Assembly (NCBI GenBank): GCA_965198235.1
Contig: OZ240248.1
Location: forward strand, 320,001 to 384,000
Length of the DNA: 64,000 nt
Origin: Candidatus Poribacteria bacterium
GTDB taxonomy: Bacteria; Poribacteria; WGA-4E; WGA-3G
Reading direction: 5' to 3'
Shown: piece after piece, positions 36,227-50,589 of the stretch
How positions within the stretch are numbered: position 1 is the stretch's first letter
How the letters are laid out: every line of letters begins with the position of its first letter
Made by a program: the position numbers and the translations under genes
The notes under the pieces: model-generated
Seen by the model: only the letters and a program-made list of their open reading frames with translations
Databases searched by the model: none
What the model was told of the DNA's origin: nothing

Positions 36227-39200
36227 ATGCCTCGCATTTTCGATAACATCGACCAACCGCTGCTCCCCGCACTCCAACAAACGCTTGAAAACGCCACGCA
36301 TGCCGATTTTTGTGTTGGCTATTTCAACCTCCGTGGATGGAGAGGACTCGGATCTTACGTTGAGAATTGGAACGGCGGCGAAGGCGAATGCTGCCGCTTG
36401 CTCGTCGGGATGCAACGCTTACCTGAAGAAGAACTCCGAGGAGCCAAGCGGCTTGCTAAGCAGGACGGTAGGATTGACAATCAAACGGCACTCCGTCTCA
36501 AACGGAGATTAGCAGAAGAATTCCGAGAACAATTGACCGTAGGTGTGCCGACGCATGTAGACGAAATAGGCTTACGCCAATTGGCGCAGCAACTTCGCGC
36601 CGAGAAGGTGAAGGTGAAGTTATTCCTCCGACACACCCTCCATGCGAAACTCTATCTGATTTATCGCTCTGACATAATTACACCAACTGTCGGTTACCTT
36701 GGCAGTAGCAACCTGACCCTCGCCGGACTCTCACAACAAGGAGAACTCAACGTTGATGTCGTTGACTCGGATTCTTGTGACAAGTTAGAGGAATGGTTTG
36801 AAGACCGATGGGACGACCGGTGGTGTATTGATATTTCTAAGGAATTGGTTGAGATTATTGAGCAGAGTTGGGCGCGTGAGGAGCTCATTCCGCCATATCA
36901 TATTTATATCAAGATGGCGTATCACCTCTCGCAAGAGGCTCGCGCTGGATTGACTGAATTTCAGATTCCACGCGAGTTTGAGGACAAACTCTTTGAATTC
37001 CAAACCGCTGCCGTGAAAATCGCAGCGCATCACCTCAACAGACGCGGCGGTGTGCTAATAGGCGATGTCGTCGGACTCGGTAAAACGCTCATGGGAACAG
37101 CATTGGCGCGCATACAGGAAGACGATTACGACCTTGAAACACTAATTATTTGCCCGAAGAACCTCGTCAACATGTGGGAAAACTATCGGGAGCAATACCG
37201 CCTGCGGGGGAGAGTGCTCTCAATTAGCCGAGTCATCAATGAATTGCCAGACCTTCGACGCTACCGACTTGTCATGATTGACGAAAGCCATAACCTCAGA
37301 AACCGTGAAGGTAAACGCTACCGCGCCATTCAGGACTATATCCAACAAAATGAGAGCAAGGTTATCCTCCTCTCTGCAACTCCTTACAACAAAACCTATC
37401 TTGATCTCTCTAATCAGCTCCGTCTCTTTGTTGACGAAACCGAAGACCTCGGCATTCGGCCGGAGCAATATATCAAGGTGTTGGGCGGTGAAACCGAGTT
37501 TATTCGCAAGCATCAAAGCGGGGTCCGCACACTTTCAGCGTTTGAACACAGTGAGTATATTGACGATTGGCGCGAACTGATGCGCCGGTATCTCGTCCGC
37601 CGCACGCGCACTTTCATCACGGAAAACTACGCCGAAACGGATCCCGATACAAAACGGACGTTCCTTTTATTTCCGGACGGCACGCGTTCCTACTTCCCTA
37701 CACGCGCACCAAAAACGATAAAGTTCTCAATTGATGAGCAAAATCCCGACGACACCTACGCGCAGTTGTACTCTCGTTCTGTCGTAAACACCATTAGCAA
37801 TCTTAAACTCGCCCGATATGGACTCGCAAATTACATCGTTGACACACCATCGGAACCGCCCACAGAAACCGAACAGCGGCAATTGCAAGACCTCTCGCGT
37901 GGCGGCCAGCGGTTAATGGGATTTTGCCGGACAGGTCTCTTCAAACGACTTGAAAGCAGCGGACAGGCATTTATCCAGTCCGTTGATCGGCATATTCTGC
38001 GAAACTATATCTTCCTCTACGCCATTGAGAACAATGAATCGTTACCGATCGGGTCCCAAAACGCTGAGATGCTCGATTCTCGGTTTGAGGATAGAGATAC
38101 CGATGATGCCACTCTCATCTTAGATGCCTCTGGTGATGATGATGACACGCAGCTTGATAGCACAAATTCACAAACCGGTTCATACACAGCCGATGATTAT
38201 AAACATCGCGCCGCTGAGATTTATGGACTCTACACAACAAAATATAAAAGTAGGTTTAAGTGGCTCCGTCCAAATCTTTTCCACCCGCTGCTTCGGAAAG
38301 AGTTGACCGAGGACGCGCTCGCACTCACCAAGATTTTGCAACAGTACGGCACGTGGGACCCCGAGAAAGACGCGAAACTCAACGCGCTTCAAGAACTCTT
38401 AATCCAGACACACCCAGACGATAAAGTCGTGGTTTTCACACAATTTGCGGATACCGTGCAGTATCTGACAGATGCCCTCTCAGAACGCGGGTTGACGCAA
38501 ATCGCCGCTGCGACCGGCGACTCGGCAGATCCCACAGCTTTAGCACACCGCTTTAGTCCCGTCAGCAATAATAAACGGGATAGAATTCAGCCCGAAGACG
38601 AATTACGGGTCCTCATCAGCACAGATGTCCTGAGCGAGGGGCAAAATTTACAGGATTGTGCAGTCGTTGTCAATTATGACTTACCGTGGGCAATTATACG
38701 CTTGGTGCAGCGTGCCGGCAGGGTTGACCGAATTGGTCAGATGGCGGAAGACATTTTGTGCTATTCGTTTCTACCCGCTGAAGGTGTGGAGCGCATCATC
38801 AACTTGCGTGGACGCGTCCGGGCGCGCCTTCGCCAGAATGCCGAGGTTGTCGGCACGGACGAAGCCTTCTTTGAAGATGACGGTGAAGAAGGCAACGAAG
38901 CGATCGTTAACCTCTATAACGAAAAGGCAGGTTTGCTTGACGATGCACAGGATAACGATGTTGACCTCGCCTCTCACGCGTATCAGATTTGGAAAAACGC
39001 CATTACGCAAGACCCAGATTTAGAAAAGATTGTTCCTGCACTCCCGTCTGTTGTCTATTCAACCCAATCGCACGTCCCAACCGATAACGAACCCGAAGGT
39101 GCGCTCGTCTACATCCGAACAGGACAAGAAAACGACGCACTGGCATGGATAGATCGAAACGGTCAGAGCGTAACGGAATCCCAGTTTGCAATTCTTCAAG

Positions 39201-39625
39201 CCGCAGCGTGCAAACCAGACACTGAAGCACTCTCACCCCTCGAAGAACACCATCGCCTCGTTGAAGAAGCCGCGAGTCTGATTGTCTCTGAGAAAAGGTC
39301 GGTTGGCGGACAACTCGGACGACCCTCCGGTGCGCGTTTCCGAACGTATGAACGCCTCACACAGCACGCCAACGACATGGAAGGCACACTCTTCAACACA
39401 CGGGAACTGAAACAGGTCATTGAAGCCATCTATCGCTATCCGCTGCGGCAGACGGCGACCGATACCCTCAACCGTCAACTCCGCAGTGGCATTTCCAACG
39501 AGGATCTCGCGGCGTTGGTGATTGATTTATGGGAAACAGATAGACTCTGTATTATTGAGGAAGAGCGGCAAACACGAGAACCCCAGATTGTCTGCTCACT
39601 GGGACTTCGTGCAAGCAGGGCATGA
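36227..39625 (+). CDS. PLD-like nuclease fused to SNF2-family helicase
   Basis: 'HAKLY...GSSNLT' PLD motif; 'GDVVGLGKT', 'DESH', 'SATP', '[10 protein letters not shown]'. Confidence 0.9.
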
Positions 39626-39701
39626 ACGGATTCACTGCAACACTTGTGGGAGAGGTGTTTTGCTGGGGTGTTCCCTCGACATCCAGAGGCGTTGAATTGT
39701 T

Positions 39702-39760
39702 AAATTGTCTGAATCGCGGATTACACGGATGACGCGGATTACACGGATTTTCAGACATTT
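39702..39760. repeat. Repeat family D
   Basis: 'aaattgtctgaatcgcggattacacggatgacgcggattacacggattttcagacattt', self-complementary ends. Confidence 0.75.
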
Positions 39761-39931
39761 GCCATCCGATTATGTTACACGTAGCGTAGACTGTTAGTCT
39801 GCGTGCTTGTATACACAAACTAAAAGTTTATACCACAATTGCTCTCGGCAATCCTGCAAAACCTTGAACTCCAGTGACACATCGTATATAATTTGTAGAA
39901 ACCTAACATTCCTGCTACATGGAGACTTCAG

Positions 39932-40642
39932 ATGAAAAGCCCCAAATTTGTCGTCGGACATCTTATGGACGACCAATTGTTCGTCAAATCTGTCAAGATT
40001 CCAAAGCCCCTCGATTGGATCAAACAATTAGGAAGCGAAGAACTTGTTGAGTTTTTTGGGGAGTTCCTCAAACTGGTGACACACATTTCAGAAGGCAAGG
40101 AAAATAGCGAGACGCTTGAGGAATTTCTTGCTTATTGGCGCGAGATCGCATCAGAAATGGAAGATTACGAGGAAAATGACACGGAAAATTACGAGTCGTT
40201 TTTCAAATCTCTCGCCGATTCGCTCGGAACAGCCTTGATCAATTCCGGAGGGGATGTCTTGGCAAATATTGCTGAGGCAGAGCAGGAATTGGATTCGCCC
40301 TGGATAGATATTGTCGATGTCCAACATGAACAGGACCCACTGTTCCATAACATCTACATGGAGCCGGAGATCGCTGATGTGACGGAACAGCAGCGGGATC
40401 ATTACTTAACCCTATCTATCTCTGAACTCAGACTCCCTACCCGAGCCCACAATTGTCTCGAAAGGGCAAACATCTATACCTTACGAGCACTCGTCGAAAA
40501 AACAGAAGAAGAATTACTGCTGCTCAGTAATTTCGGGATGGTATCACTCCAAACAGTCAAAGCAGGACTCGCTCCCATGGGGCTTTACCTCGGAATGGAC
40601 CTGGACCCAGAGGAGATCAATGAGGACGAGGACTACGACTAA
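39932..40642 (+). CDS. Acidic protein with C-terminal RNA polymerase alpha-CTD-like domain
   Basis: 'ISELRLPTRAHNCLERANIYTLRALVEKTEEELLLLSNFGMVSLQTVKAGLAPMGLYLGM' aligns by eye with RpoA CTD; no alpha-NTD. Confidence 0.85.
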   Translation: MKSPKFVVGHLMDDQLFVKSVKIPKPLDWIKQLGSEELVEFFGEFLKLVTHISEGKENSETLEEFLAYWREIASEMEDYEENDTENYESFFKSLADSLGTALINSGGDVLANIAEAEQELDSPWIDIVDVQHEQDPLFHNIYMEPEIADVTEQQRDHYLTLSISELRLPTRAHNCLERANIYTLRALVEKTEEELLLLSNFGMVSLQTVKAGLAPMGLYLGMDLDPEEINEDEDYD

Positions 40643-40663
40643 AATACTTTCAGAAATTGCTGG

Positions 40664-40713
40664 AGACGCTTTCCACTGAACATGACGAAGACGCTTTCCA
40701 CTGAACATGACGA
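40664..40713. repeat. Perfect 25-bp tandem duplication
   Basis: 'agacgctttccactgaacatgacga' x2 directly before the MTase RBS. Confidence 0.9.
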
Positions 40714-40727
40714 AAAGGAAAACATAA

Positions 40728-43700
40728 ATGCTTAACGTCCGGGAGACACGCCAATACCTCAAAGAATCCGACTTTGAAACCCTCTTTAACGAACTCGGTT
40801 GGGACAATCATGCCCAAACACTTCCCGTCACAGTAGATGAAACCGAATATCAACTTACTGCAATCGCCCAAAAACGTGGAATGGTTATTTTTCAGTGCTC
40901 AGCAACAGATGAAGGACATATCCCTGAACGTAAAACGCGCGAAAAGATCCAACGGCAAGTCGCAAAATCCTCTCATGAAAACTTCATCATCTACGCCAAC
41001 GCTGAGAAAACGACACAAATCTGGCAATGGGCAGGCCGAGAGCATGGAAAACCTATTACACGCCGTGAATACCCTTACGATCAGGGACAACCCGGTGAAC
41101 TCCTTATTCAAAAATTGCGTGCTATTGCCTTTGGTTTTGAAGAGGAAAAGCAGCTGACACTCCCTGACGTGATCGGACGCGTTCGGGCAAGTTTCGACGT
41201 TGAACGGGTCACCAAACGTTTCTATGACCGTTTCAAAAAAGAACATGACGCATTCCTTAAATTCCTCACGGGTATCCCAGACGAAGAGATGCAACGCTGG
41301 TATGCCTCCGTGATGCTCAACCGTCTGATGTTTATCTATTTCATTCAGAAGAAAAGTTTTCTGAACAACGACATAGACTACCTACACAACAAACTGACAG
41401 AGAGCAAAGAGAAGGGCAGTAACCAATACTACAAGGAATTCCTCTGTCCGCTTTTCTTTGAAGGATTCGCCAAACCGGAAGCCGAACGGCGCAGTGAAAT
41501 GCGTCGCCTACTTGGGAAAATCCCCTATCTCAACGGCGGCATCTTTCAAAAACACCAACTTGAGACACTCCACGGCGAAAACATTGAGATCCCCGACACT
41601 GCATTTGAGAAGCTTTTCAGGTTCTTTGAGCAGTACCAGTGGCATCTCGACGACCGTCCACTACGAAACGATAACGAGATCAACCCCGATGTCCTCGGCT
41701 ATATCTTTGAAAAATACATCAACCAGAAGCAAATGGGTGCTTACTACACCAAAGAGGACATCACAGACTATATCAGCAAAAATACGATAATTCCGTTCCT
41801 TTTTGATGCAGCACGAAAATCGTGCAAAATCGCCTTTGAAGGTGATACCGCTGTTTGGCAACTGCTGCAAGAAGACCCAGACCGTTATATCTACGAAGCC
41901 GTCAAAAAAGGGGTCGGATTGGATTTACCACCAGAAATTGCTGCCGGCATTGACGATGTCTGCAAACGCACCGACTGGAACAAGCCTGCATCCAATGATC
42001 ACGCTTTACCGACAGAGATCTGGCGGGAGGTCGTCGCACGGCGGCAGCGTTATGAAACCGTCCGAGCCAAACTCGCAAATGGAGAGGTCCGCGATATCAA
42101 CGATCTGATTACCTATAATCTCAACATCCGCCAATTCTCGCAGGATGTCATCGAAAACTGTGAGGGACCCGAATTGCTCCGCGCCTTCTGGAAAGCCATC
42201 ACCGAAGTGACTATCCTTGATCCCACTTGCGGCTCTGGCGCGTTCCTCTTTGCTGCTCTCAACATCCTCGAACCGCTCTACGAAGCGTGTCTGGATCGGA
42301 TGCAAGTCTTCTTAGACGAGGGTGGCGTGATCTCCAAATCACGCCCCTCCCGTAGATACAATGACTTCCGCGAAATCCTTGAACGCATTGACGAGCACCC
42401 GAACCGAGAGTATTTCGTCCTCAAATCCATCATCATCAACAACCTCTATGGTGTGGACATCATGGACGAGGCGATTGAGATTTGCAAGCTCCGTCTCTTC
42501 CTCAAAATGGTGGCACAGATCGAGGACGTGAGACGGATAGAACCACTGCCGGATATCGACTTTAACGTGCAGGCAGGCAATACTCTTGTCGGCTATGCGA
42601 CTTATGACGAGGTGAAAAATGCCGTCAGCAGTAATTTTGACTTTGACGACACGATGAAGCGTATTGAAGAGAGGGCTGAGGACGTTGAATACCTGTTTGA
42701 ACAGTTTCGCAAGCAACAGACCGAATTGGGTGGCACTGTGACGCTTGCTGACAAACAAGCACTGCAGGATAAACTCGAGGCATTAGAAGACGAACTCAAC
42801 GGATACCTTGCTGGAGAATACAAAGTAGATATGAACAAACAATCTGCTTACGAAAAGTGGCTAAATTCACACAAGCCTTTCCACTGGTTTATTGCCTTTT
42901 ACGGTATTCTTGAAGACGGTGGATTTGATGTCATTATCGGCAACCCGCCGTATAAGGAATATAGTGAGGTGAAGAAAAAATACACTGTAATAGAATATAA
43001 AACCGAAAAGTGTGGGAATTTGTATGCCATGTCAATTGAAAGGTCTTTTGGTTTAAGCAGAGGCCCAGTCGGAATGATCGTTCAACTCCCATTAGTATGC
43101 ACTGATCGCATGATACCAGCACAGTCACTTTTCAAATCTTCAAATAGGAAAAGCTGGTTTGCTAATTTTGATGATAGACCGGGAAAGCTCTTTGATGACT
43201 TACAACACATACGCGCCACCATCTTTCTTACTACACAAGAGAATGATTTGGACACTGCTATTCTATATTCCACTAAATATAATAGATGGTTCACAGAAGT
43301 CCGATCCATCTTGTTTGACGGTATAGTTTATGATGACATTACAGATTTTTGCACTGAGGGTGCGTTTCCCAAGATAGCGGATTCTGTGGAGAAACGCGTT
43401 GCTAGTAAACTCAGGAATGCTAAAAAACCTATTTTGACATTTAAGACTGGGAAATATTTTTGCCATTTTCACAATTCCCCTCAATATTGGATTCGGGCAA
43501 CCGATTTCATACCATATTTCTGGAACGAACAGGATGGAGAGAAAATTTCAACTCATGTTAAACCTTTGCATTTAACAACTGCATTAGATGCATCCATAGT
43601 CGCAGCAACTTTAAACAGTTCGCTTTTTTATTGGTGGTTTGTTATTCTTTCCAATTGCCGCGACTTAACTTTGCGTGAGGTTAGAAGTTTTCCAATCGCT

Positions 43701-43967
43701 GTTGATCAAATGGATAAGGTTTTCAAACAAATTCTTTCCGAACTTTCCGCTGACTTAATGCAAGATTTGAAACATCATGCACAGCGAAAGGAAACCAATT
43801 ATAAGACCACCGGCAAGGTAGTCTATGATGAATTTTTCCCACGTCATTCCAAACCTATCATAGACGAAATTGACCGTGTGCTTGCCCAACATTATGGCTT
43901 CACAGACGAGGAATTAGACTTCATCATCAACTACGACATTAAGTATCGTATGGGCTTGGGGAACTGA
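40728..43967 (+). CDS. Eco57I-like N6-adenine DNA methyltransferase with TRD
   Basis: 'GAYYT', motif I 'DPTCGSGAF', motif IV 'GNPPY'. Confidence 0.9.
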   Translation: MLNVRETRQYLKESDFETLFNELGWDNHAQTLPVTVDETEYQLTAIAQKRGMVIFQCSATDEGHIPERKTREKIQRQVAKSSHENFIIYANAEKTTQIWQWAGREHGKPITRREYPYDQGQPGELLIQKLRAIAFGFEEEKQLTLPDVIGRVRASFDVERVTKRFYDRFKKEHDAFLKFLTGIPDEEMQRWYASVMLNRLMFIYFIQKKSFLNNDIDYLHNKLTESKEKGSNQYYKEFLCPLFFEGFAKPEAERRSEMRRLLGKIPYLNGGIFQKHQLETLHGENIEIPDTAFEKLFRFFEQYQWHLDDRPLRNDNEINPDVLGYIFEKYINQKQMGAYYTKEDITDYISKNTIIPFLFDAARKSCKIAFEGDTAVWQLLQEDPDRYIYEAVKKGVGLDLPPEIAAGIDDVCKRTDWNKPASNDHALPTEIWREVVARRQRYETVRAKLANGEVRDINDLITYNLNIRQFSQDVIENCEGPELLRAFWKAITEVTILDPTCGSGAFLFAALNILEPLYEACLDRMQVFLDEGGVISKSRPSRRYNDFREILERIDEHPNREYFVLKSIIINNLYGVDIMDEAIEICKLRLFLKMVAQIEDVRRIEPLPDIDFNVQAGNTLVGYATYDEVKNAVSSNFDFDDTMKRIEERAEDVEYLFEQFRKQQTELGGTVTLADKQALQDKLEALEDELNGYLAGEYKVDMNKQSAYEKWLNSHKPFHWFIAFYGILEDGGFDVIIGNPPYKEYSEVKKKYTVIEYKTEKCGNLYAMSIERSFGLSRGPVGMIVQLPLVCTDRMIPAQSLFKSSNRKSWFANFDDRPGKLFDDLQHIRATIFLTTQENDLDTAILYSTKYNRWFTEVRSILFDGIVYDDITDFCTEGAFPKIADSVEKRVASKLRNAKKPILTFKTGKYFCHFHNSPQYWIRATDFIPYFWNEQDGEKISTHVKPLHLTTALDASIVAATLNSSLFYWWFVILSNCRDLTLREVRSFPIAVDQMDKVFKQILSELSADLMQDLKHHAQRKETNYKTTGKVVYDEFFPRHSKPIIDEIDRVLAQHYGFTDEELDFIINYDIKYRMGLGN

Positions 43968-45742: not shown

Positions 45743-45905
45743 GTGATAGACCCAAGCCTAAAGACTTGGGCTTCTGCAAATATTAAGCAGAAGCATTTGT
45801 GGAATTGAGAAGCGGACTACACGCTTCAACGGAGCAGCCGACAATCCTGTTGAACAAAACAATCGGTCTTACGACTCCTAACCCAAAGGAAGCTACCCCT
45901 TCCTT
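45743..45905 (-). ncRNA. Putative omegaRNA (reRNA) scaffold
   Basis: Overlaps the tnpB 3' end and the right end; 'GGAGTCGTAAGACC...GGCTGCTCC' stem; boundaries approximate. Confidence 0.6.
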
Positions 45906-46994
45906 AAGAATGTTCAGAGCAGCGTTCTCGTCGCGGTCGAGGTGTGTTCCACAACTTGGACACGTCCATTCCCTGTCTGAGAGCGTGAGGCTTTGATTTT
46001 TATGTCCACACACATAACAGCACTTTGTGGTCGGCGACCACCGATTGATTTTCAGCACAGACCGTATCCGCTTTTTGCTTTGGTGTTTGAGTTTCTGCAG
46101 AAACTCACCGAAGGCGAGGTCAGACACCTGTTTACCCCAAAGTTTTTTCATACCCTGAAGGTTCAAATCTTCAAAGAACAGGATGTCAAACTGACGACAG
46201 AGTTTTATCGCAAGTTTCCAGTGGTGGTCTATCCTTTGATTCGCCGTTTTCTTATGGATACGGACAACGTTCTTACGTTCTCGTTCCTGATTGTTAGAAC
46301 CTTTGACTTTATGAGAATATACCTTTTGTGCAGTTGCCAACTTTTCAGCGTTGAGTTTGTAGAACATTGGCGATATTTCTCGGTGTCCGCTACTGGTAGT
46401 CAGGAAGTCTTTGATTCCAAAGTCGAACCCTTCAGCTTGACCCGTCTTGGGTTCATATCTGACTTCACTATAATCTTCAGTGAGCGTGATATACATATCT
46501 CCAAGTGCGTCTCTTGTAACCTGAACGCGTTTGATTTTTCCCTGTATCGGGCGGTGCAGCGCGAACCGATACCAACGTCCGTTGAGTCGGATTTTATACG
46601 TCGGGTGATTTCGCTTATGTTTGTGTTTATCGGAAACTTTTTCTATCGCAATCTGTTCGCCAGAGAACGTCATGCCTCTATGTTTCTGACACTTCTTGAA
46701 CTTCGGGTGACCTTTGCCAAGGGTTTTCATTTCTTTGAAACTCTGTGCCAAGCGTTTGAGTATGTTTTGAAGACTCCACGAGTATGGGATATTCCAATGT
46801 TGGTATTTCTCAAGCTTTTTCAGCCGCGTCAAATGTTTCGACATCTTGGAATACGACAAGTCCTTACCATACCGACGGTAATATCGCCGAGACAACGCAT
46901 TGAAATGATTCCGAACAACGCCACAGATATTCAGGTCATCCTGGAGATGCTTCAAAGAGGTATCACGAAAAAGTTTATGTGTGGTGTTTCGCAT
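45783..46994 (-). CDS. tnpB: RNA-guided endonuclease TnpB
   Basis: RuvC D-E-D ('GFDFG', 'FFEDLN', 'DRDENAA'), Zn ribbon CxxC...CPSC. Confidence 0.93.
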   Translation of the reverse strand: MRNTTHKLFRDTSLKHLQDDLNICGVVRNHFNALSRRYYRRYGKDLSYSKMSKHLTRLKKLEKYQHWNIPYSWSLQNILKRLAQSFKEMKTLGKGHPKFKKCQKHRGMTFSGEQIAIEKVSDKHKHKRNHPTYKIRLNGRWYRFALHRPIQGKIKRVQVTRDALGDMYITLTEDYSEVRYEPKTGQAEGFDFGIKDFLTTSSGHREISPMFYKLNAEKLATAQKVYSHKVKGSNNQERERKNVVRIHKKTANQRIDHHWKLAIKLCRQFDILFFEDLNLQGMKKLWGKQVSDLAFGEFLQKLKHQSKKRIRSVLKINRWSPTTKCCYVCGHKNQSLTLSDREWTCPSCGTHLDRDENAALNILKEGVASFGLGVVRPIVLFNRIVGCSVEACSPLLNSTNASA

Positions 46995-47121: not shown

Positions 47122-47430
47122 GGAAAAATGAACGCTTGGGTCCTTTCCAAAAAGGCGGTGTCTACATCCCAAACCTGAAGGATTGGGTTTTGACACCGAA
47201 GTTAGATAAGATTTCAGAGCAAACTTCTGAGAAACCTTCTGCAAAAACCGCCTAAAATCCAGTCACCGTATGGGTTTACGGCTTTTTCAGAAATCCATCA
47301 CTTTTCAGATTTACTCTGAATACTCTGAAACGCGTGCTATTTCCTTTCCAGAATTTTTGTGTAATGCGGTTGCACGCATTCCCAACTTCTGTTAAAATAG
47401 TAGGTAAGCGAAAGGAGTTCTAAACATTCT

Positions 47431-47634
47431 ATGAAAACTGCACAGGCCACAAACACAGCCAACGAAAAACCGAGGCAACGCCTTACTTTTCCTACCTATA
47501 ATGAAGAGGACATCCTTAACTGGGATGCTGCTATAGTCACCCCACCGCCGCGTCAATCCGGCACAATACGGGTTAAGTTGAAATATAAGGGACGCAGTAA
47601 ACCAATTTCCGTTGAAAACTTTTGGGAGGAGTAG
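47431..47634 (+). CDS. Small hypothetical protein
   Basis: AAGGAG RBS, promoter-like 'ttgcac...taaaat' upstream, 67 aa. Confidence 0.55.
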   Translation: MKTAQATNTANEKPRQRLTFPTYNEEDILNWDAAIVTPPPRQSGTIRVKLKYKGRSKPISVENFWEE

Positions 47635-47665
47635 GTAAATGATTAATACAGTGAAGGAGACTGCA

Positions 47666-48160
47666 ATGAAATTAATCATGACTTTGGTTGTAATGCTTCT
47701 GTTATTTACCGCGCCTGCGTTCAGCGAACTCACCTCAGCAGACATTAATAAGATCCGATTAATTGTCAAGGAAGAAATTGAGGCATCCGAGACACGCATG
47801 AAAGAATACGCTGACGCATCCGAGACGCGAATGCAGAAACATTTTGAGGCATCCGAGACACGAATGCAGAAATACCTTGAGGCATCCGAGACACGCATGA
47901 AAGACCATGTCTCTGAACAAATTAAAGCGGTCAACATCACAATCACAGAAATGGACAAACGTCTGAACCAGATTTTTACGTTGGTTATTGCTTTGGTAGC
48001 TTTCATTGCCGTGGTCATCGGAATACCTCAGATCCTCGTTGCACTACAACGAAGAGATGTCCGCTCACAAAACGAAAAAATTGAGGCACAGCAACAACAG
48101 ATCGAAGCATTGGAAAGAGAAATGGAAGCGTATAGGCAAGACCGCATGGTCGGACCTTAA
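47666..48160 (+). CDS. Coiled-coil membrane protein with four 11-aa repeats
   Basis: Signal peptide, (E/D)ASETRM x4, TM helix, C-terminal coiled coil; AAGGAG RBS. Confidence 0.75.
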   Translation: MKLIMTLVVMLLLFTAPAFSELTSADINKIRLIVKEEIEASETRMKEYADASETRMQKHFEASETRMQKYLEASETRMKDHVSEQIKAVNITITEMDKRLNQIFTLVIALVAFIAVVIGIPQILVALQRRDVRSQNEKIEAQQQQIEALEREMEAYRQDRMVGP

Positions 48161-48166
48161 AAAGTT

Positions 48167-48691
48167 ATGGAAATCGCCGATCTCAAACAACGCATTGCAC
48201 AAGGTGAAAACACCACGACCGAATTCAAAGAGAGCTTTGATCAGGAGGCTATTGAGACCGCTGAACCGACTCACAACCCTGTAAACCCCACTTTGAGTCA
48301 ATTGATGTTTGATGTCGGTTTCATTGAACGGTACGGTGCCGGCATCAGGATGATGAAAAGGCTATCTGAGGAATGGGGAAACAAAGAACCGCGTTATGTG
48401 TTTCACCCGCTTGAAACCAAAATCATCTTTGATTCACCGATTCAAGAGACAACTTTCATAGAGATCGATGATATTTCAGAACAGTTGAACGAGCGTCAAA
48501 AGAATGCCTTGTTTCACGTCCAAAAGAACGGGCAAATTGCGACAAGAGAATACGCGGAGATCAACCATATTTCGCCCAGGACTGCCTATACCGAGCTCAA
48601 GGATTTAACAGACAAAGGGCTATTGACTGCAGTAGGAAAGGGAAGAGGAATTAGGTACGTCCGAAAAGTGGACGATCAGGTAACCGATTAA
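48167..48691 (+). pseudogene. Internally deleted AlbA_2/HATPase_c_4/HTH protein
   Basis: 'GENTTTEFKES' joined directly to 'NPTLSQLM...IERYGAGI' and a wHTH. Confidence 0.7.
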
Positions 48692-48743
48692 TTGCGTGAT
48701 TAATTGCGTGATTAACTACGCGAACATAAGAAGTAGGACCCAC

Positions 48744-50054
48744 ATGTCGGAGCAAACGATCACAGGCATTACCAAGATAGCAGTAAAGGGTTTCAAGTCG
48801 ATAGCGGAGGAGTGCGCGATTGACATCCGTCCGTTGACAATCCTTGCCGGCGCGAACAGTTCCGGGAAATCCAGCATCATGCAACCGCTCTTGATGCTAA
48901 AGCAGACGCTGGAGGCACCCTATGATCCAGGACCCCTAAAAATTGACGGACCGAACGTTCAATTTACTGAGGCAGCACAATTTTTATCGATGTTACCCCG
49001 TGAAAAGAGAACAGATCGTTTTCAGGTTACGGTTGCAAGTACGCACATTGAAAGCAGGGGTACTGAACGCTCCATTTCAGTAGAGACAACTTTCAGAGAG
49101 GGAAAGGGCGGAATTGAAATTGTTAAAATGACAATTAAGGCAAAGTCTAAACCTGACGAACCACTGCGTACCATGCATTTCACCTTGACCCCTGAGATGT
49201 CCGTTGAAGAAATTAAGTCCTTGAGTAACCAGGGTTTGATACTCAAGGGTCACGATTCTGTCAAGCGTTCACGCTGTTTTTTACGTTTGGAGTCTCAACA
49301 TAGTCGTGTGCTCTTTAACACTACCGCTTACCTTGAGTCCTGTATTTTCAACAGCATTCACCTACCTGGATTACGCGGTAGCCCAGAACGCACCTATAAA
49401 TTCACCAGCACCGGTCCCCGGTATTCCGGCACGTTTGAAAATTATGCTGCGAGCGTCATTCACGAGTGGCAGGAGATGAAAGACAAACGCCTGAAAATGG
49501 TAGTTGATGCACTCTATACGCTTGGATTGACGGGAAAAGTGGGCACCCAAAAAGTCGGTGATATCGGTATTGAACTTCAAGTCGGTCGTCTCCGCCATGA
49601 TCGAAACAATGAAACAGATATGGTCAACATCACCGATGTGGGATTCGGGGTGTCCCAAGTCCTACCTGTTTTAGTCGCCGTGATTGTCGCGGAACCCGGG
49701 CAGTTAGTCTATCTCGAACAACCCGAACTGCACCTCCATCCCCGCGCACAGGTCGCCTTAGCGCATGTGCTGGCAGATGCGGCGAAACGGGGGGTGCGCG
49801 TTGTCGCTGAGACGCATAGTTCACTGTTGCTTTTGGGGGTTCAAACGCTTATTGCCGAAGGAGATCTCTCGCCAGAGTTAGTCAAACTGCACTGGTTCAC
49901 ACGGCGCGAAGATGGCGTAACCGAAGTTAACAGTGCCGATGTGGATGAGGCGGGGGCTTACGGCGAGTGGCCCGAAGATTTTGCAGATGTCAGTCTCCGC
50001 GCTCAAAGTGGTTACATAAAGGCAGCACGGTCGCGTTTCGTTGAAGGGACATAG
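48744..50054 (+). CDS. ABC-type (AAA_21) ATPase with DUF3696-like C-terminus
   Basis: 'GANSSGKS', 'VGFGVSQ', 'LEQPELHLHP', 'ETHS', 'WPEDF'. Confidence 0.88.
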   Translation: MSEQTITGITKIAVKGFKSIAEECAIDIRPLTILAGANSSGKSSIMQPLLMLKQTLEAPYDPGPLKIDGPNVQFTEAAQFLSMLPREKRTDRFQVTVASTHIESRGTERSISVETTFREGKGGIEIVKMTIKAKSKPDEPLRTMHFTLTPEMSVEEIKSLSNQGLILKGHDSVKRSRCFLRLESQHSRVLFNTTAYLESCIFNSIHLPGLRGSPERTYKFTSTGPRYSGTFENYAASVIHEWQEMKDKRLKMVVDALYTLGLTGKVGTQKVGDIGIELQVGRLRHDRNNETDMVNITDVGFGVSQVLPVLVAVIVAEPGQLVYLEQPELHLHPRAQVALAHVLADAAKRGVRVVAETHSSLLLLGVQTLIAEGDLSPELVKLHWFTRREDGVTEVNSADVDEAGAYGEWPEDFADVSLRAQSGYIKAARSRFVEGT

Positions 50055-50055
50055 T

Positions 50056-50589
50056 ATGCACTCAAGGGGTTTAAAACGACTCGTTGTGAACGCCTCGGTC
50101 GCTCGTGCTGCTGGTGGTGCAGGGGCAACTGAGCTGGTATCAATCAGTTGCACCGAATTCCTTGAGACCTTTCGAGACGAATCCTCACACCACGTCGTGA
50201 TGACATTTGAATTATCCGAAGAGTGGGATGAGCATCAATCGAATTTTGCAGCCGAATGGTTAGGAAATATGATTGCCACAAGGAGATTCCACTATATCAA
50301 GCTTCCTCAAAATAGAGTGTTGTATGACGAAATTGAAGCAACAGCGGTTCGGGAAGCAGACATCAACGCGATGCTAAAGGATTTTCACCTCCTCGGAGCA
50401 GCACTTGCAACTGATCAAACCATTGTTTCGCTTGATGAAACCATCCGCGGGCTTTTCGCACGCGCCTCACAACAGGTCAATGAAATCAGGCACATCATTT
50501 GGGTGAATCCAGATCGGATGGCAGAACATCCCATCACGTGGCTCCAAAACGGCGCACCCCCTGAAGTACATCGTAGGCTTTCTGCCTGA
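50056..50589 (+). CDS. PIN-like protein
   Basis: 'LVVNASV', 'KDFHLL.AA', 'IVSLD'; starts 1 nt after the ATPase stop. Confidence 0.6.
   Translation: MHSRGLKRLVVNASVARAAGGAGATELVSISCTEFLETFRDESSHHVVMTFELSEEWDEHQSNFAAEWLGNMIATRRFHYIKLPQNRVLYDEIEATAVREADINAMLKDFHLLGAALATDQTIVSLDETIRGLFARASQQVNEIRHIIWVNPDRMAEHPITWLQNGAPPEVHRRLSA

Follow-up and report, generated by a model that had tools for sequence, protein, structure and literature searches.

The 64-kb window considered here, by which we mean the whole stretch of Candidatus Poribacteria DNA that was analysed, carries at positions 36227-43967 a small acidic gene, P0002, set between a gene for a PLD-SNF2 helicase fusion (P0001) and a gene for an N6-adenine methyltransferase (MTase; P0003). 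We are highly confident of two points taken together: that P0002 is by evolutionary origin a chimera of a type II antitoxin and the 3' end of the host's rpoA, the gene for the RNA polymerase alpha subunit, and that it is not an obligatory third subunit of the helicase-MTase cassette in which it lies. A type II antitoxin with a captured domain of host RNA polymerase is apparently undescribed within the literature searched; no account of the C-terminal domain of alpha (alpha-CTD) joined to an antitoxin scaffold was found there, with subscription journals and supplements outside the search. The role of the chimera is stated less firmly. That of a regulator of the module, which the original prediction for this DNA had offered as a fallback, is the most plausible.

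The starting description was of an acidic gene of 236 codons, co-oriented between a PLD-helicase and an Eco57I-like MTase and encoding an alpha-CTD without the N-terminal domain of alpha (alpha-NTD). Both parts of this description hold: three open reading frames (ORFs) were confirmed at these coordinates, all on the + strand, and the Pfam assignments agree. The translation of P0002 (39932..40642, +; 236 aa) contains 51 D+E against 17 K+R, with a pI of 4.24. Its residues 153-213 (nt 40388-40570) match PF03118 (RNA_pol_A_CTD) at E 1.8e-16 and 60 bits, against a cut-off of 23.8, and this is its sole Pfam match at E<=0.1, none falling to an alpha-NTD. The NCBIfam rpoA models gave 43-71 bits against cut-offs of 228-523 and covered the C-terminus only. 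A sequence search of the PDB found 46 solved alpha chains that match the same stretch (best 3gfk_B, E 1.6e-12). Because the alpha-NTD is missing, P0002 would be unable to assemble into polymerase; a genuine rpoA, a 340-aa ORF, is located elsewhere in the genome.

The N-terminal part of P0002 points to toxin-antitoxin (TA) systems. Residues 1-73 recur alone as a very conserved protein of 109 aa, hereafter the short form, in 83 of the 176 genomes of the phylum survey. At loci L075, L078, L089 and L051 the stop codon of the short form overlaps a 93-aa ORF, and this ORF matched PF05016 (ParE_toxin) in all four cases tested, three of them above cut-off. By tblastn, a ParE ORF directly follows the short form in 12 fetched loci (L050 and L080 being one place), and a ParE remnant of 33 residues lies in a 13th, L066. 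ParE is present in 23 of the 64 other genomes of the window's genus, and every match checked abuts a short form, in a comparison made by hand and not row by row. The short form is a type II antitoxin of a ParE/RelE-type pair. Residues 1-73/75 of P0002 are 44-68% identical to the 109-aa proteins (53-69% over residues 1-73 for one set of short forms, 50-68% over 1-73/75 by tblastn), and its N-domain is by this measure homologous to a protein whose gene immediately precedes, and overlaps, that of a toxin. The original prediction had suggested a decoy or sensor for phage factors; the gene derives from an antitoxin of the ParE/RelE family and not from a sensor for defence.

More distant kin of the short form lead in the same direction. 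An exhaustive HMMER search with it returned 56 proteins. The distant relatives reach PF19760 (DUF6247) in 18 of 31 cases at E<=0.01 and in 5 of 31 above its cut-off of 26.9 bits, with scores of up to 32.7 bits, and in part of them an antitoxin domain of the MazE/AbrB or HicB kind is joined on. The short forms themselves score 15-19 bits on this model, and residues 1-145 of P0002 gave no match to it. The model of the short form from AlphaFold 2 (AF2) has a mean predicted local distance difference test score (pLDDT) of 87.7 and consists of a beta-hairpin and five helices. Foldseek found no match to it in the PDB at E<=0.001, and the highest Z among 48,161 chains compared by VIA-align was 5.5, to generic helical pairs only, which does not prove a new fold. 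The short form drew nothing from NCBIfam, PADLOC returned nothing meaningful for P0002, the short form or ParE, and residues 1-125 of P0002 found no usable match in the ESM Atlas.

Full-length relatives of P0002, the long form, are confined to the window's genus, where they occur in 26 of 65 genomes; 91 long-form sequences make up our alignment A3, and 27 long-form genes were taken from loci. Long and short forms have in common the N-domain, the penultimate helix of the antitoxin ('LINS..DVLADIAEAEQELD.PW') and the promoter. After the antitoxin part, the alignment of P0002 with host rpoA begins in the interdomain linker, runs across the CTD and takes in the acidic tail. Long-form CTDs are 47-63% identical to the genome's own CTD, as against 35-46% for 18 outgroup rpoAs. 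A maximum-likelihood tree built on 91 columns unites the 27 long-form CTDs in a single clade (95/93), which groups with nine rpoA CTDs from the phylum (86/92); the limits of this tree are a short alignment and outgroup rpoAs drawn from a scan based on P0002. These alignments are best read as a single capture, in which the 3' end of a poribacterial rpoA would have replaced the last helix of the antitoxin together with the toxin gene. The gene is a mosaic. Between the window's gene and its nearest relatives (L052, L053, L054, L055 and L057), dS is 0.5-0.7 in the N-domain and 0.12-0.25 in the CTD; copies thus recombine, which suggests that paralogues have undergone gene conversion. In several genomes the helicase is flanked by two copies of the small gene. 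One relative, P0118 (330 aa, from a 6.5-kb ENA contig), carries the linker/alpha-CTD unit twice in tandem behind the antitoxin N-domain.

The toxin is gone from the neighbourhood of the chimera. No ParE match was found by tblastn in the window or beside any of the 27 long forms, and the gap between P0002 and the MTase gene is 85 nt. This bears on the proposal that the chimera is a trans-acting or 'anti-addiction' antitoxin that neutralises ParE-type toxins encoded elsewhere, the alpha-CTD adding stability or a tether to DNA. The N-domain and the penultimate helix are retained, as the proposal would have it, and at L055, L064 and L085 the long form shares its cassette with a short-form/ParE pair; orphan antitoxins are, besides, a known phenomenon. 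Yet cognate ParE is absent (E<=1e-15) from 16 of the 26 long-form genomes, the window's included, which has only a relative of 40% identity elsewhere. The antitoxin's last helix has been deleted as well, and for the retained region disorder is predicted and evolution is close to neutral, so that we regard neutralisation in trans as quite improbable.

The predicted structure of P0002 follows the same division. Residues 1-76 (39932..40159, +) are the antitoxin-derived N-domain, recognised by identity to the short forms and modelled by AF2 as a beta-hairpin and three helices (strands 6-12 and 15-21; helices 25-32, 35-53 and 59-76), at a pLDDT of 65-78. Residues 77-145 (40160..40366, +) form an acidic, mostly disordered middle part, with 18 D+E to 1 K+R and a pLDDT below 50 over 78-142; in the alignments it holds the penultimate antitoxin helix and then the captured alpha interdomain linker. 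The alpha-CTD proper occupies residues 146-222 (40367..40597, +), where PF03118, the PDB alpha-CTD matches and a pLDDT of 81-95 coincide. The acidic tail, residues 223-236 and the stop codon (DLDPEE..DEDYD; 40598..40642, +), aligns with rpoA, contains 9 D+E and no K+R, and has a pLDDT below 50 over 228-236; it is inherited from the phylum's rpoA, whose own end is similarly acidic. As modelled, P0002 resembles the alpha subunit in plan: a small folded head is joined to a CTD by a long linker that is flexible and acidic, while the portion needed for assembly into polymerase is missing. In a homodimer prediction that used alignment A3, two copies of residues 1-120 scored 0.40 against a mark of 0.42, with controls at 0.00.

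The two flanking genes are the predicted halves of a restriction-modification (RM)-like cassette, P0001 the restriction half and P0003 the modification half. P0001 (36227..39625, +; 1132 aa) is a fusion of a PLD (HKD) nuclease with an SNF2 helicase, as judged by Pfam, PADLOC and motifs. Pfam places a single HKD/PLD module (PLDc_2, residues 116-195, E 3e-9) before an SNF2 ATPase (SNF2-rel_dom, 259-323, 1.3e-10) and a Helicase_C domain (717-837, 1.1e-17). The catalytic motifs are intact, with HxK..D at 139, GSSN at 159, GLGKT at 283 and DESH at 352, and the top match in the defence library is the PADLOC model C3a139, 'HKD+Snf2' (E 5.2e-54). P0001 shows weak similarity to RapA; docking of a RapA-like helicase on the alpha-CTD was considered and dropped, as no literature on the matter was found. 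A second PLD-SNF2 helicase, 33% identical to P0001, is encoded in the same genome (G000:C1:2755836-2758139) and belongs to a paralogous family widespread in the phylum. P0003 (40728..43967, +; 1079 aa) is an N6-adenine MTase of the Eco57I/MmeI family (gamma class) with a target-recognition part; it matches the Pfam models Eco57I (5.9e-21) and MmeI_Mtase (2.1e-8), has the motifs DPTCGSG at 498 and NPPY at 739, and is matched over its full length by the PADLOC model PDLC03628, 'REase_MTase_IIG'. No nuclease domain was found in P0003 by Pfam, and the sequence search gave no solved relative, which leaves the PLD module on the helicase as the only recognisable nuclease of the cassette.

Across the 176 genomes, with helicases and MTases counted at E<=1e-50, MTases like P0003 are present in 76 and helicases like P0001 in 95, the latter count including the paralogous family at 30-35% identity. 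From coordinate tables read by hand, helicases of 70-91% identity adjoin the MTase in about 70 genomes. The MTase is less conserved (57-83% identity) than the helicase, and its C-terminal third is often swapped or split, as expected of a specificity part. Among P0003-like MTases many (G171, G164, G116, G070, G157) are broken up or stop at about residue 700, and their C-terminal piece stands apart and is much more divergent, at 43-60% identity, which looks like exchange or decay of the target-recognition part. In at least 11 cassettes, L087 and L084 among them, the spacer between the genes is 20-165 bp and leaves no room for another gene. The core system accordingly consists of two genes.

The contents of the spacer, where there is room, argue in the same sense. 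Forty-one loci were mapped, picked for holding the small gene or for looking informative and not at random. The long form occupies the spacer of eight intact cassettes, the window's among them. Others hold the short form with ParE, the short form alone, a VapC toxin with a DUF2281 antitoxin, encoded on the other strand and in some cases accompanied by the short form, PemK/MazF with a small ORF, an IS4-type transposase, or nothing, the spacer being 20 bp. The idea of a defence system of three genes, in which P0002 would be an integral member or a decoy, is not supported by this comparison, as orthologous cassettes carry other cargo at the same position, one of the outcomes that the original prediction had itself named as refuting it.

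Its association with the cassette is real all the same. An enrichment near defence genes had been anticipated, and 22 of the 27 long-form genes do lie in or beside a cassette or its remains, always co-oriented with it and ending 25-180 bp before the helicase or the MTase gene. Of about 72 full-length copies of the short form, about 24 lie in or beside a cassette when coordinates are compared by hand, and the remainder are ordinary TA loci elsewhere, for example beside sulfatase and PhyH genes. This linkage of the short form is far above chance, with the caveat that copies co-inherited with a cassette are no independent events.

Such proximity is what one would look for in a structural subunit or adaptor of the helicase-MTase pair, be it an inhibitor that restrains the PLD nuclease as an antitoxin would, or a link from one protein to the other. 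The tight, co-oriented position directly upstream of one or the other gene and the over-representation of the short form fit such a role. Against this stand the position itself, which varies in the long forms (before the helicase, between the genes, or both), the many intact cassettes that have no small gene, and the other TA modules that take the same place; the linkage can also be explained by common descent with the cassette. The gene is, moreover, kept where its supposed partners are gone. Five orphan long forms, intact and with neither helicase nor MTase, lie at a syntenic Der / 2-Hacid_dh / permease ... PhyH site, between the permease and PhyH/NsnB-like genes, which is the same chromosomal site as that of the window's cassette; P0002 is no obligatory part of the system. 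In the CTD tree these orphans fall into at least four subclades, beside cassette-borne copies, which implies that helicase and MTase were lost repeatedly while the small gene was kept. An adaptor is on these grounds very improbable, and the small gene is better described as a facultative passenger. The locus also shows that TA modules settle in the spacer of this conserved cassette; their promoters may in time take over expression of the methylase, and restriction systems could in this simple way acquire controller-like regulation. There is a warning for annotation too, in that a co-oriented gene inside an RM pair need not be a component of the system.

A passenger might be idle, a chance chimera drifting as a functionless by-product in a spacer that collects TA debris. 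Decayed TA remains do occur there, such as the ParE stub at L066, remnants of DUF2281 and a leader resembling the 3' end of an antitoxin gene, and a dN/dS of 0.4 is relaxed in comparison with core genes. Such drift is nonetheless hard to reconcile with the state of the gene. All 27 long-form genes are intact, at 213-266 aa, even at L052-L054, L059 and L064, where helicase and MTase are fragmented. Median dN/dS is 0.41 in both the N-domain and the CTD, well below 1, and 0.66 in the middle part, the linker lying near 0.7-1. Residues critical for the fold and for DNA binding are invariant over the 91 sequences, and contigs identical to the P0002 gene occur in two RNA-labelled metatranscriptome libraries from sponges, one contig spanning the junction with the MTase gene, a record of presence only. 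From this pattern of constraint the long form is probably functional, and a functionless by-product is the least probable of the explanations weighed here.

Constraint on the CTD is unevenly spread over its surface. In E. coli, alpha touches sigma region 4 through E261 and binds DNA through a determinant made up of residues 265-299. In the numbering of E. coli K-12 rpoA, P0002 holds the equivalents of R265 (its own R171), N268, C269, G296 and S299, with M and V at 297 and 298; with these residues present, a score of 60 bits and a pLDDT of 81-95, its CTD has the alpha-CTD fold and the 265 determinant. The original prediction had noted both the five kept residues and the replacement of K297 and K298. 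Both observations stand, with the qualification that the host's own alpha has R and T at these positions, which leaves the missing basic residue at 297 as the one change peculiar to the free protein. Among the 91 long forms, R265 and G296 are kept in all 91, C269 and S/T299 in 90 and N268 in 71. E261, in contrast, is kept in 12 and a basic 297 in 13, as against nine of nine rpoAs of the phylum in either case, and V264 (16 of 91) and a basic residue at 255 (2 of 91) have likewise been lost from positions invariant in all nine.

This census is where the idea of a decoy or guard must be weighed, in which the free alpha-CTD baits phage factors that bind or modify alpha-CTDs, for example ADP-ribosyltransferases acting on R265, and so shields the polymerase or triggers the nuclease-helicase. 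Several observations suit it. The R265 equivalent is invariant, and T4 Alt and ModA do ADP-ribosylate Arg265 of alpha, a residue with a role in contacts with UP elements and CRP (PMC2988021). The setting is a defence island, with the RM-like cassette, an NsnB-like ATPase (PADLOC E 5e-54) and, in relatives, SLFN/AlbA_2 neighbours. P0118 has two alpha-CTDs in tandem, and evolution is fast, with dN/dS near 0.4 and several subclades, as it would be in an arms race. A protein that imitates the true target should, however, keep the surface that the host conserves, and it is this surface, E261, V264, the K255 equivalent and R/K297, that has been lost; the CTD has drifted to 47-63% identity with the host's, as compared with 65-92% among the rpoA CTDs of the phylum. 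An effector is not coupled to it either: the toxin is gone, and the gene has no nuclease beside it in the five orphans and in several degraded cassettes. Many cassettes, moreover, work without the small gene. We know of no phage partner for this phylum. Taken together, a decoy is unlikely. Its more specific version, in which a probably dimeric look-alike of alpha2 offers free alpha-CTDs as bait and engagement alters expression or activity of the cassette, strikes us as more doubtful again; were it right, the tandem CTDs of P0118 and the retention of the gene after cassette loss would speak of a general anti-takeover function.

We return to regulation. We give about even chances to the reading that P0002 is an exapted type II antitoxin which, with its captured piece of host RNA polymerase, serves as an autoregulating regulator or mimic; the particular autoregulated, controller-like mode of action that follows is offered more tentatively. 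As to origin, of which we are surer, a ParE/RelE-type pair had settled in the spacer of the two-gene restriction-like cassette, and within a single genus of the Poribacteria the rpoA 3' end took the place of the toxin gene and of the final helix of the antitoxin, the one that binds the toxin. The chimera would no longer serve a toxin. The surface formed by the R265, N268, C269, G296 and S299 equivalents might bind A-rich DNA beside the -35 element of the strong TA promoter that it inherited, or compete with the alpha-CTDs of the polymerase, and could in this way set transcription of its own gene and, by read-through, of the downstream cassette gene, here the MTase. The effect would be akin to that of a controller (C) protein, a role gained by accident of insertion. 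If P0002 does bind UP-like DNA or the partners of alpha-CTDs, it would be a natural experiment in which a core piece of the transcription machinery was copied by a mobile or defence-island gene, for self-regulation or for interference with takeover.

Several elements lie in the DNA around the gene. A sigma-70-type promoter-like site, TTGAAC-17 nt-TATAAT (39864..39892, +), agrees with the consensus at 10 of 12 positions; an A-run closely precedes it, and the P0002 start follows after 39 nt. At a distance of 35-43 nt, 18 of 27 long-form genes and 16 of 16 short-form genes are preceded by the same site, in most cases with a TG-extended -10, and it would plausibly function as a promoter. A short inverted repeat over the -10 element was noticed by eye. 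An A-run within 12 nt upstream of the -35 element accompanies 17 of the 18 long-form promoters and 8 of the 16 short-form ones. A scan for terminator-like sites between 40642 and 40728 found none. This 85-nt leader of the MTase gene contains two 25-nt direct repeats (40653..40702, +; repeat search), which by eye resemble the 3' remnant of another small antitoxin gene, the 73-aa partner ORF of MazF at L088 and L091; the MTase leaders of long-form loci give the same impression.

Several points weigh against a regulatory role. P0002 is very acidic and has lost basic residues beside its DNA-binding surface (297 and the K255 equivalent), which is atypical for a DNA binder and keeps the decoy alive, along with the other rival readings; a decoy would account for the invariant R265 just as well. 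Shared descent confounds the conservation seen from locus to locus. Binding of DNA, dimerisation and regulation by P0002 are predictions from sequence, and read-through into the MTase gene is a proposal. A promoter scan of the whole region did not exceed chance, with 17 sites against 10.8 +/- 3.0 expected. The A-run also precedes short-form genes of the same genus and therefore predates the fusion or was merely inherited. As for the RNA-library contigs, they prove neither a single transcript nor transcription at all, carry-over of DNA being possible.

Other features of the window lie around these genes. Upstream of the P0002 promoter, between the helicase gene and P0002, a repeat search found a dispersed high-copy repeat (39703..39760, no strand assigned) with 11-nt inverted arms around three direct repeats, GGATTACAC-like and phased at 9 nt. 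It has five matches in the window against 0.28 expected; the contig of the repeat reaches a depth of about 6000 in the DNA runs, as compared with about 100 in its surroundings, and has many loose ends leading into other contexts. The repeat looks REP- or MITE-like. Related units were seen by eye upstream of the MTases at L072 and L076. Downstream of the cassette, an IS605-family TnpB (45783-46994, -; OrfB_IS605 and Cas12f-like TNB matches), with no TnpA seen beside it, stands before a second putative defence module at 48167-50589, made up of an NsnB-like AAA_21 ATPase and an unassigned ORF of 177-182 aa. In relatives (L060:10560-13871, L065:10905-14215) a protein of 466-475 aa with SLFN/AlbA_2 and HATPase_c_4 domains precedes the NsnB-like module; in the window this gene appears truncated, since only its C-terminal 174 aa are left (48167-48691). 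Between TnpB and this module, a 173-aa ORF (47639-48160, +) contains repeated 'ASETRM(K/Q)..' units, with a weak Apolipoprotein-like match, and an overlapping antisense ORF of 208 aa (47392-48018, -) has repeated 'RVSDAS' units, so that the tract is a coding tandem repeat.

How the cassette relates to known systems can now be stated. The original prediction had called such a helicase-MTase pair RM- or DISARM-like, and of this the RM-like half is borne out. The definition of class 1 DISARM (DrmA helicase, DrmB/DUF1998, DrmD, DrmMI, DrmC) does not fit: P0001 scores 124 bits against the cut-off of 610 for the NCBIfam DrmD model, the PglX score is also far below its cut-off, and the helicase and DUF1998 domains are absent from the 16 neighbouring ORFs scanned. 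The cassette differs from DISARM- and BR-type systems in having only two genes, with DrmA and DrmB not found among the scanned proteins. Type-2 BR systems are described in PMC12839542 as a DUF499 ATPase, a DUF1156 MTase, a DUF3780 protein and an HKD-Swi2/Snf2 helicase. The HKD-SNF2 architecture is the only feature in common; the MTase here matches Eco57I and MmeI_Mtase and not DUF1156, and neither DUF499 nor DUF3780 was found among the scanned proteins. Type IIG enzymes unite nuclease, MTase and target-recognition domain in one polypeptide, and P0003 fits the corresponding model, PDLC03628, end to end, whereas a nuclease is not seen in it by Pfam. The cassette is a new member of the known helicase-coupled RM-like systems.

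For the small gene the comparison is with three kinds of protein. It shares the N-domain, the penultimate helix and the promoter with the ParE/RelE type II antitoxins of the 109-aa family and its distant DUF6247 kin, but its last helix has been replaced by the alpha linker and CTD and no toxin gene is adjacent. With the CTD of RpoA it has in common a homologous linker, fold and acidic tail and the R265, N268, C269, G296 and S299 equivalents; unlike RpoA, it is without the alpha-NTD, has mostly lost E261 and the basic 297, and is encoded in a defence island. From the C proteins of RM systems it differs in being derived from a TA antitoxin and in occurring only in part of the orthologous cassettes; an Xre-type HTH was not found in P0002 or the short form in the Pfam and NCBIfam scans. 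Where a C protein would bind an operator (C-box) before its own gene, a conserved promoter and, by eye, the short inverted repeat are seen. The likeness to C proteins that we would nevertheless propose is that of a small gene which could time or balance expression, with a promoter of its own and a place immediately ahead of an R or M gene.

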